From positions 1,216,001 to 1,280,000 of the forward strand of contig OX638340.1 in assembly GCA_951812955.1 (NCBI GenBank): a stretch of 64,000 bases of DNA, read 5' to 3'. The DNA comes from an uncultured Gemmatimonadota bacterium (lineage in GTDB: Bacteria; JAAXHH01). Shown one piece after another: positions 85 to 13,492 of this stretch; position 1 is the first letter of the stretch; each line of letters begins with the position of its first letter. Under the pieces are notes generated by a model. The model saw only the letters and a program-made list of their open reading frames with translations. It was not told the origin of the DNA and ran no database searches. Made by a program: the position numbers and the translations under genes.

Positions 85-2088
85 ATGTCCCATCTCACCA
101 TAGGCACGGCAGGTCACGTCGACCACGGCAAGAGCGCCCTGGTCGAGGCACTCACAGGTGTTCATCCCGACAGCCTCAAAGAAGAGAAGGACCGGGGCAT
201 GACGATCGACCTTGGGTTCACCTTCTTGCAGATGAGCGATGGCCGGGAGGTTCCCATCGTGGACGTGCCGGGCCACGAGCGGTTCCTCAAGACCATGGTC
301 GCGGGCGTGAGCGGCATACATCTCGTGCTCTTCGTCGTGGCCGCCGACGAGGGCGTGATGCCACAGACGGTGGAACATCTCGGTACGGTTAAATACATGG
401 GGGTCGGCGAGGGCATCGTCGTCCTGACGAAATGCGACCTGGTCGACGAGGAATGGCTGATGCTCGTCGAAGAAGATGTGAACTCGCTCGTATCCGGCTC
501 GTTCCTGGAGAGCGCGCCTGTCGTCCGGGTGTCCTCGATCGAGGGCACGGGGATCGACAGGCTGAAGGAGACCGTCGAGGCGAAGTTGAACGGGATTGCG
601 GTCGACGACGACGCGGGCTACTTCCGATTGCCCGTCGACCGCGTATTCTCCATGAAGGGCTTCGGAACGGTCATAGCCGGCACCGTCCTTTCGGGCAGCC
701 TGGAAGCGGATGGGGACACCGAACTGCTCCCTGCCGGGACGCCGCTGAGGGTCCGGGGCATGCAGAGTCACAATGACTCGGTCGATCGTGCCGAGAAAGG
801 ACAACGGGTAGCGCTGAACGTCTCGAATATCAAAACGAGCGACATACAGCGTGGCGATGAACTCGGCACACCCGGATACCTGCTTCCGACATCAATGACC
901 GATGCACAGTTGCAGTGCCTGGAATCTCTTGAAGAACCCCTCAAGAATCGGCAGCGCGTACGTCTGCACAAGGGTACCAGCGAAACGATCGGCAGATTGA
1001 TCCTCCTCGACAGGGACGAACTGGCCCCCGGCGAAACGGGATTCGTGCAGCTTCGCTTGGAGAGACCCATCGTGGCGGAACGGAACGAACGCTTCATCAT
1101 CCGCGGGTTTTCTTCCATGCGGCTGCTCGGCGGCGGACGATTCTTGGAAGTGTATCCTCAAAAGAACCGCCGTTTCCGCCAGACCGTCCTGGACTACCTG
1201 GAAGCGGTGACCGACGCGGAGCCGGATGTCCTGGTAGAACGGGTCATGCGGCACGCCTACGGTGAACATCGGCTCAAATCCATGCAGGACCTCGTTCGAT
1301 CCACGAACTTGAGCGGCGACGTGTTGCAACGGTCCGTGACCCGTTTGGAAGAAGAAGGTGTACTCGTACGGTTCCAGGACCGGCGGTTTCTGCACAATCA
1401 CTGGTACGCCGCCTTGAAGGACGAACTGGTCGTTGCGCTCGACAAGATGCACCGTGACCAGCGACTAAAGGACACCTTGCCCAAGGACGCCCCGAAGCTA
1501 CAGCTATCCTGGGAAGCGCCCGATACCGTCTACGATACGCTGCTCAAGGATCTCGACGAGGAATCCAGGATCGTACTGTCCGGTCGGTCGATCCGCCTGT
1601 CCACGCACGACGTTACATTGACGAGTCAGGAGAAGCGCGTTCTCGAGGCGTTCGAGGAGTTGGCCGAGGCCGATCCACCGGCCGTATTTTCGATGAACGA
1701 AATCACCCAGGTTATGGAAGATCGATCAATCGTCCCAGGGGATTTACCGGTTGATCTGAAGTCAAGCCAAGATATGATTAGGAGTATGGCGGCCTACGCG
1801 CTAGAGCTTGGAATCTTCGTCGAGTTCGCGGAGCGCCAGATCATGCATCACCAGGGGCTAGATGGGGTCAGGGAAAGCCTGGTGAACTATCTGAAAAACC
1901 ATGGAACGGTCCGGGCTTCCGAGTTCCGCGGCCACCTGGGTATCTCCCGCGCGGACGCCACCGCGTTGTTGGACTACTTCTGCGACCTGGGCGTGACCAA
2001 CCGGGAATCGGGGACGCATCGGCTGGCTGGCGAGGACGGGGACGGTGGACAGGACGGGGACGGTGGCCAGGAGGAAGATCGCGGATAA
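85..2088 (+). CDS. selB: Selenocysteine-specific translation elongation factor SelB
   Basis: 667-aa ORF. The N-terminal GTPase has motifs GTAGHVDHGKS (G1), DVPGHERF and TKCDL (NKxD-like). The long C-terminal extension of ~300 aa is typical of the SelB winged-helix mRNA/SECIS-binding domains. It lies immediately upstream of tRNA-Sec. Confidence 0.9.
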   Translation: MSHLTIGTAGHVDHGKSALVEALTGVHPDSLKEEKDRGMTIDLGFTFLQMSDGREVPIVDVPGHERFLKTMVAGVSGIHLVLFVVAADEGVMPQTVEHLGTVKYMGVGEGIVVLTKCDLVDEEWLMLVEEDVNSLVSGSFLESAPVVRVSSIEGTGIDRLKETVEAKLNGIAVDDDAGYFRLPVDRVFSMKGFGTVIAGTVLSGSLEADGDTELLPAGTPLRVRGMQSHNDSVDRAEKGQRVALNVSNIKTSDIQRGDELGTPGYLLPTSMTDAQLQCLESLEEPLKNRQRVRLHKGTSETIGRLILLDRDELAPGETGFVQLRLERPIVAERNERFIIRGFSSMRLLGGGRFLEVYPQKNRRFRQTVLDYLEAVTDAEPDVLVERVMRHAYGEHRLKSMQDLVRSTNLSGDVLQRSVTRLEEEGVLVRFQDRRFLHNHWYAALKDELVVALDKMHRDQRLKDTLPKDAPKLQLSWEAPDTVYDTLLKDLDEESRIVLSGRSIRLSTHDVTLTSQEKRVLEAFEELAEADPPAVFSMNEITQVMEDRSIVPGDLPVDLKSSQDMIRSMAAYALELGIFVEFAERQIMHHQGLDGVRESLVNYLKNHGTVRASEFRGHLGISRADATALLDYFCDLGVTNRESGTHRLAGEDGDGGQDGDGGQEEDRG

Positions 2089-2160: not shown

Positions 2161-2259
2161 GGGGAGTGTATGGGTTGCTGGTGCGCCTCACGGACTTCAA
2201 ATCCGATGGCGGGCCCTAAACAGGTCCGTGGTGGGTTCGATTCCCACACGCTCCCCCCA
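2161..2259 (+). tRNA. selC: tRNA-Sec (anticodon UCA), selC
   Basis: 99 nt, beginning GGGGAGTG and ending CACGCTCCCC(C)CA. It has an 8-bp acceptor stem with one G-U pair and a long variable arm. The anticodon stem-loop GGACTTCAAATCC is identical to E. coli selC, with anticodon TCA reading UGA. It sits 72 bp downstream of selB. Confidence 0.9.
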
Positions 2260-2477
2260 GTGTATTTCCCATACCAATTAGTACGTAATCTAACTTCATA
2301 ATATCATCGTTCCTGATTTTATAAAGGAGAACTGCAGGCATATAATACACCGAGTGTGGTTATACCTCTGTCGTGGGGGTCGTGCAATATCCGGTCGCCA
2401 AACCCAACAGATTTCCGGCTATTCAATTTACAAACTGCAGTTTATTTGCCGTGGACTTATCTGATTAAGGAATTACG

Positions 2478-2990
2478 TCAATGGGGATGATTCTCAGGAC
2501 GTATCTTTAACCATTCGATTTTCTTTAATACACCAATTACCGCTTCTGTGTAGATTTCCTTCGTCGGCCAACTCTGTTTTTTGTTAATATATGCTTCTAT
2601 AAATGGTCGGTTAGTTTTAAGAAAGTGGTAAATAGACTCTTTCATATCAAAGCTTAATTCGGACGAATGATGAGATAAAGCGATATCAAGTTGCAACAAC
2701 ATGTGTTGGTAACTTCTATATCGCGCTTCATCCAGTTCACTACCACTTATTGGTCTGCGTTTACCGATTTCCCCGACTTCCGTAGACCTTATGGTAAATG
2801 ATTCCGGATTCAATATCTTAGAAATTTGGGTTACTATGATACCCCGAATTTGTTTTGCCTGTTGAGAGCGTCTATATCGACGGGAAAAAAATGTTTTTGT
2901 TGCCAAAACTGCTGCGACAATTATACCTATCAATATCCCATTCTGTATTTCTGTTAAACTGTTGTAATTCATAGATATACAATCTCCCAC
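2478..2990 (-). CDS. Hypothetical protein with N-terminal transmembrane helix, encoded in the AT-rich islet
   Basis: 170-aa ORF (GTG at 2990, or ATG at 2972 giving MNYNSL...). It has the hydrophobic segment GILIGIIVAAVLA, low-GC codon usage unlike the host genes, and no recognisable family. Confidence 0.4.
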   Translation of the reverse strand: MGDCISMNYNSLTEIQNGILIGIIVAAVLATKTFFSRRYRRSQQAKQIRGIIVTQISKILNPESFTIRSTEVGEIGKRRPISGSELDEARYRSYQHMLLQLDIALSHHSSELSFDMKESIYHFLKTNRPFIEAYINKKQSWPTKEIYTEAVIGVLKKIEWLKIRPENHPH

Positions 2991-3074
2991 ACTGGTAATT
3001 CGGCCTTTACTCTCTCGATTAGTTCACGGACCTGGGACTGAAAGTAGCTTATATTAAAAGTTACAATCAGGTTT

Positions 3075-3097
3075 TTCGATTCCCACACGCTCCCCCA
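3075..3097. repeat. attR-like direct repeat of the tRNA-Sec 3' end
   Basis: TTCGATTCCCACACGCTCCCCCA matches 2238-2259 of tRNA-Sec, with one C fewer in the C-run. Confidence 0.7.
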
Positions 3098-3115
3098 ACC
3101 AAAAAGGAATAACCC

Positions 3116-3724
3116 TTGACCCGAAAGGCCGGTCAACCCGCGACAAAACCTGTCGAACCTGATACACAGCCCGGCATGCCCATGGAAATCCTGGGCATGT
3201 ACCTCTTCATCGCCAGCGAACTGATCATCTTCATCACGCTGCTCTTCATCCTGTTCTGGCTGAGGTCGGGTCTCGTAGCGGAATGGCCTCCACCGGACCA
3301 GCCCCGGCTACCCATCGGGATCACGGGTATAAACACCCTGTTTCTACTGGTAAGCGGCTACACCATGCACCGGGCATACCAGGCCGTGAAGCGGAATGCC
3401 TCCCGCCAGCTGACCCGGTGGCTGATGATAACGTGCGTACTGGGCGTGGTCTTCCTCACGGTCCAGGGCTTCGAATGGATCCGGCTGATTCGCTTCGGGC
3501 TGAGTATGACCTCGAGTCTGTACGGCGCCATGTTCTATTCGATCATCGGACTCCACGCGGTCCACGTACTCGCCACCGTGCTCGTCCTGCTCTACCTCTG
3601 GGTTCGGTCCTCCACCGGCGTCTATACCGCTGATAAACACATGGGCGTCGTACTGGGCTACATGTTCTGGCTCTTCGTCGTCCTCATCTGGCCCATCCTC
3701 TACATCCTGGTCTACCTGGTATAA
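3116..3724 (+). CDS. Cytochrome c oxidase subunit III-like (heme-copper oxidase subunit III family) membrane protein
   Basis: 202 aa with about five hydrophobic helices. Sequence resembles small CoxIII/CyoC-type subunits (FEWIRL, GLHAVHVLATVLVL). It is GC-rich like the host. Starts at TTG 3116, with an alternative ATG at 3176. Confidence 0.5.
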   Translation: MTRKAGQPATKPVEPDTQPGMPMEILGMYLFIASELIIFITLLFILFWLRSGLVAEWPPPDQPRLPIGITGINTLFLLVSGYTMHRAYQAVKRNASRQLTRWLMITCVLGVVFLTVQGFEWIRLIRFGLSMTSSLYGAMFYSIIGLHAVHVLATVLVLLYLWVRSSTGVYTADKHMGVVLGYMFWLFVVLIWPILYILVYLV

Positions 3725-3882
3725 ACCGACTAACCTGAACACAACGATGGATAGAAACCAAAAAGCTGTGCTATCTATACAACGTGCAAAACCCCCTCAG
3801 AGTATAGGTTTGTTTTCTACACTACACAAATTGGGACAGGTCTGCATTGCGGGGTTAATATGATCACATCCATGCAGAAAAC

Positions 3883-4566
3883 TCAATATGCCAGAACTCC
3901 AGTTTTATCGACAATCCAGTCGATCATGCAGCGGAAGCATGGACACTGTTCGCCACCTCTCTCGTCAAACAAAACTTCTGATAAGTCTGCTTTGTTTAGA
4001 ATGGTGTGGCAGTCCGATATTTCTCGGTAGGATCGTTTAAGTTTGGTACGAAACAACTGCTCAACAATCCTTTTGGGGGGATTGTCTTGGTTTTGTTCTT
4101 CGGGAGGTAGTCGCCAACCCTGAGGTTTGGTGCTCATCTTGAGTTGCGACTGCAGGTGATTCGGTGTTGCGAGAAGCAACATTTCCAAGTCGTGTTTCAA
4201 TGCACTAGGGTAAAATCGAGATAAACAACTTTGAACCTCATTCGGTCTAGCCCGTGCAGGCAATTCCCTCTTCACCAACATTCTCTGTAAGTCTTTAAGT
4301 TCTCGAAGGTTTCTGTGCCTAAACTCTGTATTCTCATAATAACGATTGGGGTAAAGATCGGGTAACCCTACGACAAGATCATTCTCATCATTCAACAGCT
4401 TTTCGGCTCCTCTAGGTCCAATTTTACGGAAAAACTTTGATTTGTTTTCGAGTGAAATCGTCTGTATACCCCATCCATTTACTCTAAGTATTGATATCCA
4501 GTCTCCCCACAGCGCAGATAGCGCTTTACAGTCCGACTTACCTTCCAAGTAGACCCACACCTTCAC
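3883..4566 (-). CDS. Small partner protein of the ATPase (possible Toprim-like/DUF4276-like effector), hypothetical
   Basis: 227 aa. Its GTG start overlaps the TGA of the upstream reading frame (GTGA). The N-terminus VWVYLEGKSDCKAL is an acidic E-G-x-S-D motif reminiscent of the Toprim-like small partners of OLD/AAA_21 ATPases. It has two C-terminal Cys pairs (CPCFRC). Composition is low-GC. Confidence 0.5.
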   Translation of the reverse strand: MKVWVYLEGKSDCKALSALWGDWISILRVNGWGIQTISLENKSKFFRKIGPRGAEKLLNDENDLVVGLPDLYPNRYYENTEFRHRNLRELKDLQRMLVKRELPARARPNEVQSCLSRFYPSALKHDLEMLLLATPNHLQSQLKMSTKPQGWRLPPEEQNQDNPPKRIVEQLFRTKLKRSYREISDCHTILNKADLSEVLFDERGGEQCPCFRCMIDWIVDKTGVLAY

Positions 4567-4717
4567 GCACCTGCCTCCAGTTCGCCAGATCTATGAAGGT
4601 CGCCTAAGGTTTCGCCGGAGACGTCTTCAAGCATTTGCATCAGTGCGCTGCGACTCGAGGGGCGATACCACCTGACTTTCGAGTCGTCCAACGTGCGAGT
4701 CATAACGGCTACATCAT

Positions 4718-5863
4718 CTATACCAATATACCAAAGCAGTCGAGCAGGTCTGGGCTATGGGTTGTCACGAGCACCTGTGCACGCTCTGCAGCAGACTTGA
4801 TCATTTCCGCCACTATCGGCAACAGGCCGGGATGAAGTCCCAACTCCGGTTCGTCTATAGCTATCAGTGGAGGAGGAACTGGATTCAATAGCGCAGTCGC
4901 CAGACACAGGAACCGCAACATACCGTCAGAGAGTTCCCACAGGTACATGGAACGGGAGATTCCTTTTTCTCGTATCCCGACCAGAGCTTGCGGAGGAGTT
5001 CCGTAGGTAGTTTCGCAATGGATATCCTCGAATGTGGGATACGACACGCGCAGGTATTCGTGTAAGTCCTCTGCAGTCGAACGATAGTCGTATCGTGTCA
5101 GAATTTCGTGTAGCACTGTACCCAAATTGTCACCCACTGACGTCAACATCGTATCCCGTTTTATATCCGCTGGTTTTGATCTAAGCGCAGAAGACCAGGT
5201 GACGTCAAAGCCCGGGTAAAATGCCATACCTGCCAACAAAAACCTAGCGACAGCGGGAATTGGAAACTCATTAAAGAACCTTATCTGGGAAAGTAATAGA
5301 GCCATTTCTTGTTGTGCGGCTATTCCGCGTTCCTGATTCTTTTCTGCCGAACTGGATTCCTGCACCGCAGAAGGTTCGGGCTGCGCAACATCAAAAGGAA
5401 TCAAACGGTGTTTTTCTCTGTCAAATACTTGCCTTCTATACTGTGTTGCCTCCAGAAACTTTAGTGATTCATCATGGCCTGTATACGGATTCAGATTCCT
5501 GAGAACTTCATACTCAGGTTGCATCTGTCCATCCACATTCACTTTCAAAACAACTTCGTACTTTAGTGGGTTATCATTCTGTAGTGGTAGATCATTCCAT
5601 CGAGGAGTCCTTGGTCTACAAAAATCAATCTTCCAACTCAATCGATCAGTGCTGTTGCCCGCCGTAAGCATAGATTGAGCGCCTCGATGCCAACTAAGAG
5701 CAGTTTCTATCGGAAAGTCACAACATTCTCTTATTAACCTTAGGCAATCGATCAGCGAACTCTTGCCGCTAGCATTCGCACCGATTACCACCGTCAAAGG
5801 CTTAAGGTCAGCCTTAAAATCGCTGAGGAGCCGGTAGCCACTTACCTCGATATTCATGATCAT
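4718..5863 (-). CDS. ABC-type ATPase of the AAA_21/OLD-like family (possible 3' frameshift; see findings)
   Basis: 381 aa. It has Walker A VVIGANASGKSS, Walker B/D-loop LIAIDEPELGLHP and the H-loop TTHSPDLL typical of AAA_21/OLD N-terminal ATPases. Low-GC island gene. Confidence 0.8.
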   Translation of the reverse strand: MIMNIEVSGYRLLSDFKADLKPLTVVIGANASGKSSLIDCLRLIRECCDFPIETALSWHRGAQSMLTAGNSTDRLSWKIDFCRPRTPRWNDLPLQNDNPLKYEVVLKVNVDGQMQPEYEVLRNLNPYTGHDESLKFLEATQYRRQVFDREKHRLIPFDVAQPEPSAVQESSSAEKNQERGIAAQQEMALLLSQIRFFNEFPIPAVARFLLAGMAFYPGFDVTWSSALRSKPADIKRDTMLTSVGDNLGTVLHEILTRYDYRSTAEDLHEYLRVSYPTFEDIHCETTYGTPPQALVGIREKGISRSMYLWELSDGMLRFLCLATALLNPVPPPLIAIDEPELGLHPGLLPIVAEMIKSAAERAQVLVTTHSPDLLDCFGILV

Positions 5864-6182
5864 GATCTACCACCTTAAGCTTACTCTCGAAGGTCCATAG
5901 ATCTTCTACTGAGTTAGAATACGATGCACTCCGCCAGAAGGTATCAAAATCTAGATTCAAATATACATAGTCATTCTTTCAATTACAATCTCGTTGACAG
6001 TGTTGAATCTTGGTACGTCAGAAAGGTCATGAAGACACATGAGAAGATGACTCGGTTGAACCTACAAGTTTACCATTTATTTATTGTTGTAGTTCAGGCT
6101 AATTTCAATCTGTGTTATGGGCATAAAGGAAGATCCAAAAACAGTGGAAGATGAACAAAGCTCACTGAGACATGAAGGTTCT

Positions 6183-11327: not shown

Positions 11328-12500
11328 CTAGGCTATCGTACGGGGTTTCAGTTCGCCTGGACGGGTGAATCGAGCGAGCGCGAAGAGGCTAGTGTCGACT
11401 GGCGGCGTTTCGTCGTACAGTTTGGCGGCCAGGATCTCGCCCAGTACCGGGCCGAACTTGAACCCGTGCCCCGAAAACCCCGCGGCTACGACTACGTGGC
11501 TGTAATCGGGATGGCGATCCAGGATGAAGTGGTAGTCCGCAGAATTGGTGTAGAGACAGTGTTTCACCGTGACGGGATTGCGGAAAAGGTGGGGACATCT
11601 TCGGCCGACGAATGCCTGCACCGCGGCGAGATTGACGCGATCCACGTCTTCGGGGTCATCGGCATCGACGATACGGCCGGTTCTATGGCAGCCGGCTTTC
11701 ACCCCAGGCACCTGTACCTGGGGCACGCAGTAAAAGGGATCGGCGGTGTGATAATCGATCACGTTGGGCATGGCACCCGCCTCATGCGAGACCGGCCCGG
11801 CCTGCGGAAAGTAGGCCAGCAGTTCGCGCGTGATCACCAACTTGGCTTTGATCCCCAGTGCGTCAAGCCACCGGCCCGTCCATCCACCCGCTGCCAGCAC
11901 CAGGCTGGCAGCCGACCAGGAGCGCCCGTCGGACGCTGTTACCTCGACACGGTCTTCGCGCGGATCAATCGCAGCGACTTCCGTTTCCGTCAGGGCGTCC
12001 ACGCCATCTTCCCGGACGCAGTCCCACATACTCCGAACCAATACGTCCGCGAAAAGTACCGCGCTGTCGGGCTGGTGGATCGCTTCGCTTGTCCGTGGCA
12101 GGTTCAATTGAGGGAAACGGCGGGAAAAGGCAACGCCGGCCAGCCGCTCGTAGGGTAGTCCGCATTCCCGCAACCGGGTTTCAAGGATACCCAGTACCTC
12201 CGCGTCTGCTGGCGCCAGGTTGCAGATCCCGGTCTGTCTGAACAGCGGCCTGCCCAGGCGTTTCGCGAGGTCTTCCCAGAACCGGAACGCCCGCGACGCC
12301 ATTTCGACGTACACGTTCTCTTCGTAATCGAAACGAAACATCCGGCTGTCGCCGTGCGAACTGCCGTGTTGGTGTGCGGGCGCGTATCTTTCTAGCAGAA
12401 GTACGCGTTTTCCGCGCCCGGCCAGGACATAGGCAGACGAGACGCCGACGACCCCTCCGCCGACCACGATGACATCGTACTGGTTCTCCCGCCGGCTCAC
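11328..12500 (-). CDS. FAD-dependent oxidoreductase, monomeric sarcosine oxidase / N-methyltryptophan oxidase (MSOX/MTOX) family
   Basis: The Rossmann motif DVIVVGGGVVG is present. HGSSHGDSRMF and the C-terminal GFSGHGFKFGPVLGEILA closely match MSOX-family signatures. Confidence 0.8.
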   Translation of the reverse strand: MSRRENQYDVIVVGGGVVGVSSAYVLAGRGKRVLLLERYAPAHQHGSSHGDSRMFRFDYEENVYVEMASRAFRFWEDLAKRLGRPLFRQTGICNLAPADAEVLGILETRLRECGLPYERLAGVAFSRRFPQLNLPRTSEAIHQPDSAVLFADVLVRSMWDCVREDGVDALTETEVAAIDPREDRVEVTASDGRSWSAASLVLAAGGWTGRWLDALGIKAKLVITRELLAYFPQAGPVSHEAGAMPNVIDYHTADPFYCVPQVQVPGVKAGCHRTGRIVDADDPEDVDRVNLAAVQAFVGRRCPHLFRNPVTVKHCLYTNSADYHFILDRHPDYSHVVVAAGFSGHGFKFGPVLGEILAAKLYDETPPVDTSLFALARFTRPGELKPRTIA

Positions 12501-13492
12501 GGCAGGCCCCGTGTCGCGCGGAGCAAGGTCTCCTGCACGAGCAGTTCGTGGGACGGGGGACGGTCCGGCGGCTGATCCCCGGATATGGTTTTCAGGAACG
12601 ACTCCAGCTCGAGGTCGTACAGCTCCTGGCGGCTTCGGCCCTCCACGGGCACCCGGGATTCTCCAGCTGAATATCCGTCCCGGTCGCCGGTCAGGACCAG
12701 CCGGATCTCCGTGCCCGGTTCGAAGGGTTCGATGAGTATGGCGCTTCCCTCTGTGCCGTACACCTCGAAACGGCGCGCGGCCGGCGAAGGTTCCATGGCG
12801 GCGATGTCCACGGTGGCCATGGCGTGATCGTATTCGAATACACCCAGACCGTTATCGGTGAAGGCGGTGACTTCCCCGGTCTCGTTTCTCAGGAACGCGG
12901 TTACCTTTGACGGACGGCCGAGGATCCAGACCACCTGGTCGAGCATGTGGCCGGCCAGGTCGTAGAATATGCCGCCTTGGTGTGTACCGATTACCTCTCT
13001 GGAAGTGGCTGGAACGTTTGTCGACATGTGCGCCCGTATGGAAAAAACGTTGCCCAGCATGCCGGACCTTGCCCAGTCCGCAATTTTGACGAACCCGTCG
13101 TGATACCGGAACATGTACCCCATCTGCACCTGCAGGTTCGCCTTTTCCGCCAAAGCGGCCACCCGCTGCCAGGCGGGCCAGTCGTCCCCGGCAGGCTTGT
13201 CATACCAGGCATGTTTGCCGGCGCGGATGATCTCTTCGGTCTGGGCCAGGCTTTCGTCGTTGCGGCCTTCCGATGCAACGGCGACGACAGCCGGGTCACC
13301 GAGCATATCCTCCGCGCATTCGAACCAGCGGACGTCGGCGTACGGACCGTCGACGTGTTCCAGGGCGGCCCTCCTCTCCGCATTGGGCTCGAACACCCCG
13401 ACGCACTCGACGTCTGGGTTGGTCAACATGGACTGAAGTTTGCCGGCGGCATGCCCGTGACCGGTGCCGTATTGCGCCATGTGAATCGACAT
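12497..13492 (-). CDS. Gfo/Idh/MocA family NAD(P)-dependent oxidoreductase
   Basis: Start trimmed to ATG 13492 (MSIHMAQYGTGHGHAAGK..., a Rossmann-like N-terminus). The rest shows Gfo/Idh/MocA fold similarity. There is a 4-nt overlap with the downstream gene. Confidence 0.65.
   Translation of the reverse strand: MSIHMAQYGTGHGHAAGKLQSMLTNPDVECVGVFEPNAERRAALEHVDGPYADVRWFECAEDMLGDPAVVAVASEGRNDESLAQTEEIIRAGKHAWYDKPAGDDWPAWQRVAALAEKANLQVQMGYMFRYHDGFVKIADWARSGMLGNVFSIRAHMSTNVPATSREVIGTHQGGIFYDLAGHMLDQVVWILGRPSKVTAFLRNETGEVTAFTDNGLGVFEYDHAMATVDIAAMEPSPAARRFEVYGTEGSAILIEPFEPGTEIRLVLTGDRDGYSAGESRVPVEGRSRQELYDLELESFLKTISGDQPPDRPPSHELLVQETLLRATRGLP

Follow-up and report, generated by a model that had tools for sequence, protein, structure and literature searches.

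The 3' end of selC, the gene for tRNA-Sec, is a familiar address for foreign DNA: in the enterobacteria it is the site of islands such as LEE, SHI-2 and PAI I of E. coli 536, which come with P4-like integrases. More generally, when tyrosine integrases target tRNA genes (tDNAs) the tRNA is restored and a displaced piece of it marks the end of the island, and the "T loop / T-acceptor junction" is one class of their attachment sites (PMC4383910). For Islander islands an integrase gene is required; they typically have several genes, and their sizes peak near 13.6 kb (PMC4383910). A smaller and humbler relative is the cis-mobilizable element, or CIME, a decayed remnant of an ICE or IME that has kept attL and attR while losing the genes for integration and transfer, as described in streptococci (PMC5704250).

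Here, we have tried to focus on one short stretch of DNA within a 64-kb window (by which we mean the whole of the DNA analysed) from a chromosome of ~3.8 Mb: what is the AT-rich islet that stands directly behind selC in this uncultured lineage, and how did it come to be there? Our answer, which we hold with considerable confidence, is that it is the decayed, CIME-like remnant of an integrative element at selC whose integrase has been lost. The remnant is of an ordinary kind and matters little beyond annotation, and yet it can be mapped with some precision.

The tRNA-Sec gene itself (window positions 2162-2259, plus strand) is intact, with its CCA encoded. ARAGORN calls it as a tRNA-SeC of 98 nt with anticodon TCA, it scores 70.6 bits against the Rfam tRNA-Sec model (RF01852; gathering score 47), and its sequence is identical in the closest relative, which we call L001, and in most of the related loci. 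A block of 22 nt from this gene, TTCGATTCCCACACGCTCCCCC, occurs at 2236-2257 and again, exactly and in the same orientation, at 3075-3096, with a start-to-start spacing of 839 bp; in 100 dinucleotide-preserving shuffles of the window the repeat found no match, and none is expected by chance. Within the tRNA, the block runs from the first base of the T loop through the 3' strand of the T stem and the 3' acceptor strand to the CCA. The 3' part of the gene (2236-2259) is thus the attL side, and the displaced fragment at 3075-3097 (plus strand; the 22 exact nucleotides and a final A) is attR. The two differ by a single nucleotide in a run of C (six in the tRNA copy and five downstream, before the final A), a difference that is compatible with mutation, with a mismatch in attP or with a homopolymer sequencing error, and that has no dating value. 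The first-pass annotation had described a 23-bp repeat around an AT-rich islet of about 840 bp; the islet and the repeat both stand, and only the length of the exact match has to be corrected, to 22 nt, the 23-mer being the downstream version of the repeat.

Between the two copies lies the islet proper (2260-3074, no strand assigned), 815 bp with a GC content of 0.382. It is flanked by conserved genes of normal GC. To the left is selB (85-2088, plus strand), which encodes the selenocysteine-specific elongation factor (Pfam GTP_EFTU, Beta-barrel_SelB and SelB-wing_3) and ends 73 nt before the tRNA; to the right is a gene for a COX3-like membrane protein (3116-3724, plus strand; Pfam COX3, 2.6e-24), conserved in synteny. 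At its 3' end, selB encodes a Gly/Asp-rich tail (GEDGDGGQDGDGGQEEDRG) by means of an 18-nt tandem repeat (2028-2063), and tblastn matches of SelB to relatives stop at residues 648-667.

A scan with SelB, limited to one genome per species, yielded 22 related genomes in which selB is syntenic, the bacteria in question being marine and uncultured, with the label Gemmatimonadota or "Candidatus Latescibacterota"; several isolate names among these relatives resemble those of what we take, from the names only, to be sponge or coral metagenome bins. In L001 (SelB 94% identical, ~94% nucleotide identity, four-fold-site divergence 0.13), tRNA-Sec is followed directly by AGTAAAAGGAATAACCCTTGACCC and, after a gap of 18 nt, by the COX3-like gene. 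This is an empty site. In the window, the same sequence, ACCAAAAAGGAATAACCCTTGACCC, comes after the second copy of the repeat, and the junctions of the islet align base for base with the empty site of L001. The site is also empty in three more distant relatives, L003, L013 and L018, the last of them much more distant (SelB 60%), and across the empty-site genomes the COX3-like gene begins 18-30 nt past tRNA-Sec. The empty sites and the aligned junctions together show that the 815-bp segment is an insertion, bounded exactly by the repeat of the tRNA 3' end. Most parsimoniously, the islet would have been gained in the lineage of the window, after its split from L001; conservation of the tRNA remnant is uninformative for dating the insertion, given the 13% four-fold divergence between the two.

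The composition of the islet sets it apart as well: against its GC of 0.382, selB and the window as a whole both have 0.60 and the COX3-like gene has 0.58, and the islet is the lowest-GC 815-bp stretch of the window. Much of this had been anticipated. The first-pass annotation had called the islet AT-rich with a single small membrane ORF, which is what we find (one substantial ORF, on the minus strand, with a hydrophobic helix); it had proposed a search of related genomes for tRNA-Sec followed directly by the COX3-like gene, and L001, L003, L013 and L018 have just that arrangement. It had also named two outcomes that would speak against an insertion, namely relatives with the same segment and no repeat, and uniform composition across the region, and neither was seen.

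A gap so short in the empty sites is of some interest for the flanking gene. In L001 (12144-12163, to be compared with window 3098-3118), the 18 nt between tRNA-Sec and the COX3-like gene include a Shine-Dalgarno-like motif, AAAGGAA, and the short gap and the motif suggest that tRNA-Sec and the COX3-like gene may be co-transcribed in the empty-site genomes. The islet, with its own gene running in the opposite direction, now puts 839 bp between the two.

What does the islet carry? The ORF as listed spans 2478-2990 on the minus strand and reaches a GTG at 2990; most likely, the real start is the ATG at 2972 (gene 2478-2972), because the database copy and the homologues begin there. The protein so predicted has 164 amino acids with an N-terminal transmembrane helix (the hydrophobic residues 12-30) and belongs to a rare, uncharacterised family. 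One database entry of 164 aa, P0001, is identical and represents this very protein, and a word-indexed search of 5.8 billion proteins matched the cargo protein to itself only. When HMMER was run exhaustively against 1.84 billion cluster representatives, it brought up 17 distant full-length homologues of 26-47% identity, which have in common an RRxxQ motif after the helix, RSTxPG, LDxAR, SSDLSY and a C-terminal KIKWLKL-like motif; full-length homologues with common motifs persuade us that the cargo gene is real and intact. An AlphaFold2 model built on the small alignment (pLDDT 91, pTM 0.78) combines a long helix at the N terminus with a small hairpin and a bundle of helices, and a Foldseek comparison of the model with PDB and BFVD gave no match at E <= 0.001. 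Nor did the protein match anything in Pfam or PADLOC, or the ORF anything in the phage and plasmid collections. A weak PHROG "holin" match (E about 1e-3) was set aside, as it was seen in one of 18 family members and was driven by the transmembrane segment.

Among the eight members whose genomic context was examined, six (P0002, P0003 and P0006 to P0009) stand in mobile or defence surroundings; of the other two, P0005 has metabolic neighbours and P0001 is the protein of the window itself. P0002 adjoins a Type ISP restriction-modification enzyme and P0003 an SNF2 helicase. Around P0007 there are a Type I R-M system, a HigB/HTH pair, a fragment of an integrase and a transposase of the IS3 type; P0008 has a Gp49/HTH pair and an IS1595 transposase in its vicinity; and P0009 adjoins transposase genes, a few genes downstream of which come QueC and deoxyribosyltransferase-domain genes. 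P0006 is found on L084 (ena:ERZ28763718:ctg114425), a contig that is terminally redundant, with ends 99.9% identical and a period of 9,777 bp, and that is probably a small circular element; its 9,777-bp unit also carries a 321-aa integrase, an Ltp-like lipoprotein, a DUF4760 protein and an HNH_2 protein with a DNA methylase. By hhalign, the cargo protein has no relation to that neighbouring DUF4760 protein, a kinship that we had considered. Given its membrane anchor and these neighbourhoods, our best guess is that the cargo most likely has an accessory role, of the moron type and possibly in phage exclusion. As a by-product of the analysis, then, we have a rare family of membrane-anchored proteins of ~165 aa, encoded mostly among mobile-element and defence genes, with a confidently predicted fold that has no known relative.

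The rest of the islet is quieter. Its 218-bp non-coding arm has no Rfam match, a structure z-score of -0.7 and no terminator-like site; a weak promoter-like site lies at 3038-3067 (plus strand). Neither blastn nor tblastx found a relative of the islet in 80 loci from related genomes or elsewhere in the window, an exact scan of viral and metagenome contigs for the pattern of the attR junction gave 0 matches, and the core 22-mer likewise had 0 exact matches in viral contigs. In metagenome contigs, the 22-mer turned up in eight ordinary tRNA-Sec genes and in one unrelated tRNA-like sequence. On a short metagenome contig, L095 (110-186), the same 22-mer (with five C) ends a tRNA-like sequence that ARAGORN does not call, and the remainder of that contig is full of short hairpin repeats.

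No tyrosine recombinase was detectable in the 64-kb window by tblastn, phmmer runs with three integrases against all stop-free frames of the window returned nothing, and the islet ORF has no recombinase similarity; the earlier observation that no integrase remains thus holds for the window, which covers 64 kb of a chromosome of roughly 3.8 Mb. The single weak tblastn match, of an integrase from a relative at 35.2 kb, proved to be an amino-acid permease.

That relative is L007 (OZ253560.1), and it supplies what the window lacks. Its integrase gene (12199-13416, plus strand) starts 76 nt past an identical tRNA-Sec and encodes a 405-aa tyrosine integrase of P4-type architecture (Arm-DNA-bind_3, Phage_int_M and Phage_integrase domains); the attR of the element was not found within the 10 kb fetched. 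An integrase standing beside tRNA-Sec establishes selC as a target of integrases in this clade, and the varied cargos past selC in other relatives show that the site has been used several times. In L006 and L008, tRNA-Sec and an exact 12-nt copy of its end, ACGCTCCCCCCA (L006:12948-12959 and L008:12956-12967), enclose an unrelated, integrase-less insert of ~820 bp. The 12-nt copy is followed by AGAAAGGAA and cox3; the single gene of this insert encodes a lipoprotein with a PDC-sensor domain. L004 and L009 have the same PDC-sensor gene with an eroded tRNA remnant. The insert shared by L006, L008, L009 and L004 looks vertically inherited and eroded rather than mobile, and the L006/L008 insert is a second, independent scar at selC. 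Past selC, L005 (12815-15977) holds an N6/N4 DNA methylase, an MTaX1/HNH protein and a mutator-family transposase, and L017 (9413-10465) holds a GmrSD-like protein with a GmrSD_C domain. Repeated use of one tRNA gene by different cargos is what the tDNA-integrase rule leads one to expect (PMC4383910). The ends of the islet and those of the other selC inserts, L007 included, have no significant similarity in local alignments judged against shuffles. One candidate for a shared end motif, TCC(C/A)ATACC, which occurs at the same offset past the tRNA in the window and in L009, did not rise above chance level by the same standard.

How, then, might the islet have arisen? The first-pass annotation had seen in it an integrase-type insertion scar at selC, and the empty sites, the repeat-bounded ends, the deviant GC and the integrase at the same tRNA in L007 all argue for that view. 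In the history that we consider highly probable, the attP of an integrative element would have carried a copy of the tRNA from the T loop to the CCA, and recombination with the chromosomal gene would have regenerated a full tRNA-Sec on the left (attL) while displacing the original 3' end of the tRNA 839 bp downstream (attR). Since then, the integrase would have been lost along with whatever transfer genes there were, so that attL and attR now enclose 815 bp of AT-rich DNA in which a single cargo gene has stayed intact. The insertion itself, we infer, was made by an integrase of the L007 type. That the element was formerly larger is likewise something that we only infer, because no full-length parent was found: neither a parent nor a second copy of the islet came up in the loci, the viral and metagenome contigs, or the phage and plasmid collections searched. 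Distant homologues of the cargo gene do, at least, occur on or near integrase-bearing DNA.

One might instead imagine that nothing has decayed, and that the islet was always this small: a minimal, non-autonomous cassette of one gene, captured and moved by integrases that act in trans (the P4-type one of L007, for example), with selC serving the clade as a site for the capture of single genes. There is something to be said for this idea, in that the clade has two independent, integrase-less, one-gene inserts of ~0.8 kb with a tRNA 3' remnant (in the window and in L006/L008), both att cores of the window are essentially intact, and an integrase with the right target is present. However, the islet was found once only in all of the collections searched; the two inserts have no end motifs in common beyond chance; the one carried by L006, L008, L009 and L004 appears, as noted, to have been inherited and worn down in place; and two cases could easily be coincidence, island decay being common. 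We regard the cassette as unlikely. A bolder version is unlikelier still: in this marine clade of metagenome-assembled genomes, the 3' end of selC would time and again take in single-gene cassettes bounded by att sites, which P4-type integrases would shuttle in trans, the window islet and the PDC-sensor insert of L006/L008 being examples, and the cargo of the window would be the founding member of a new family of membrane-anchored accessory proteins, possibly anti-phage, with a fold not in the PDB.

More prosaic accounts fare worse. An assembly artefact, in which a foreign low-GC fragment had been joined into the chromosome via the 22-mer, would be in keeping with three facts: the genome was assembled from a metagenome, the islet is foreign in composition and has no second copy in the collections searched, and its downstream repeat copy differs in a homopolymer run in the manner typical of read errors. 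But the repeat is exactly the segment from T loop to CCA, in the same orientation, at an integrase target proven in L007; one would not expect a chimera to reproduce both attL and attR in full and leave the ancestral right flank as it was; and in a chromosome-scale assembly of 3.8 Mb a repeat of 22 nt would be too short to mislead the assembler. We think an artefact very unlikely indeed. Barely credible, finally, is a repeat made without site-specific recombination, by the target-site duplication of a transposon or a local duplication of the tRNA end, which would account for the missing integrase but runs up against islet ends with no terminal inverted repeats, an islet with no transposase, and a duplication of 22-24 nt from T loop to CCA that is the signature of tDNA-targeting tyrosine integrases (PMC4383910). 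An insertion sequence or MITE was rejected on the same grounds, there being no terminal inverted repeats and a duplication of 22 nt that coincides with the tRNA 3' end.

The islet does not stand alone. A second low-GC island (3725-6182, GC 0.456) lies between the COX3-like gene and a gene for a xylose-isomerase-like TIM-barrel protein, and both of its genes, which encode a DUF4276 protein (3883-4566, minus strand) and an AAA_21/AAA_15 ATPase (4718-5863, minus strand; ATPase E 1.8e-49), match the PADLOC candidate defence system HEC-01. It is absent from L001 and L003, where the TIM-barrel gene follows cox3 within about 100 bp, and no convincing repeats flank it. It had been suggested that this adjacent, defence-like island may share the history of the islet, and here we part company with the earlier view: because a conserved COX3-like gene of normal GC stands between the two, no flanking repeat is found and the GC is different, the HEC-01 island, absent as it is from L001, is a second and separate acquisition in a variable region. 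In L021 (15020-21944), the match to the COX3-like gene covers the first 35 codons only and gives way to more than 6 kb of DNA with a GC of 0.38-0.5, so that cox3 seems to have been broken up in this relative by a large island of foreign DNA. A further by-product is therefore a well-delimited variable region, marked out by selC, cox3 and the TIM-barrel gene, in which relatives hold different defence-type cargos.

The probably decayed remnant at selC offers, in the end, two modest things: a clean and precisely mapped scar of a tRNA-targeted insertion, and a demonstration that selC is an integration hotspot beyond the Proteobacteria, in an uncultured marine lineage labelled Gemmatimonadota or "Latescibacterota." Among known systems, the CIMEs come closest. 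Like them, the islet is flanked by attL and attR at a tRNA 3' end (both are kept, the 22-nt block being intact on either side with one base off in the C run), it has no integrase or transfer genes and holds only cargo (a single uncharacterised ORF of 164 aa in 815 bp), and its site is one that other integrative elements occupy in related genomes. Unlike them, it has no known parent ICE or IME and no tandem accretion in the window, it measures only 815 bp, and its host belongs to an uncultured lineage labelled Gemmatimonadota or "Latescibacterota," whereas CIMEs have been described in Firmicutes. With Islander islands it has in common the way in which its endpoints are marked, by a regenerated tRNA and a displaced 3' fragment on the same strand, together with an empty site in relatives, and its identity block, from the start of the T loop to the end of the CCA, falls in the T-loop/T-acceptor junction class (PMC4383910); unlike those islands, it has one gene only and no integrase. 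Set beside LEE, SHI-2 and PAI I, it is in a different phylum, with a tiny cargo, no virulence or defence annotation and no integrase in this copy, and yet the target is the same 3' end of tRNA-Sec, and the integrase that stands at that target in L007 has the same P4-type architecture.
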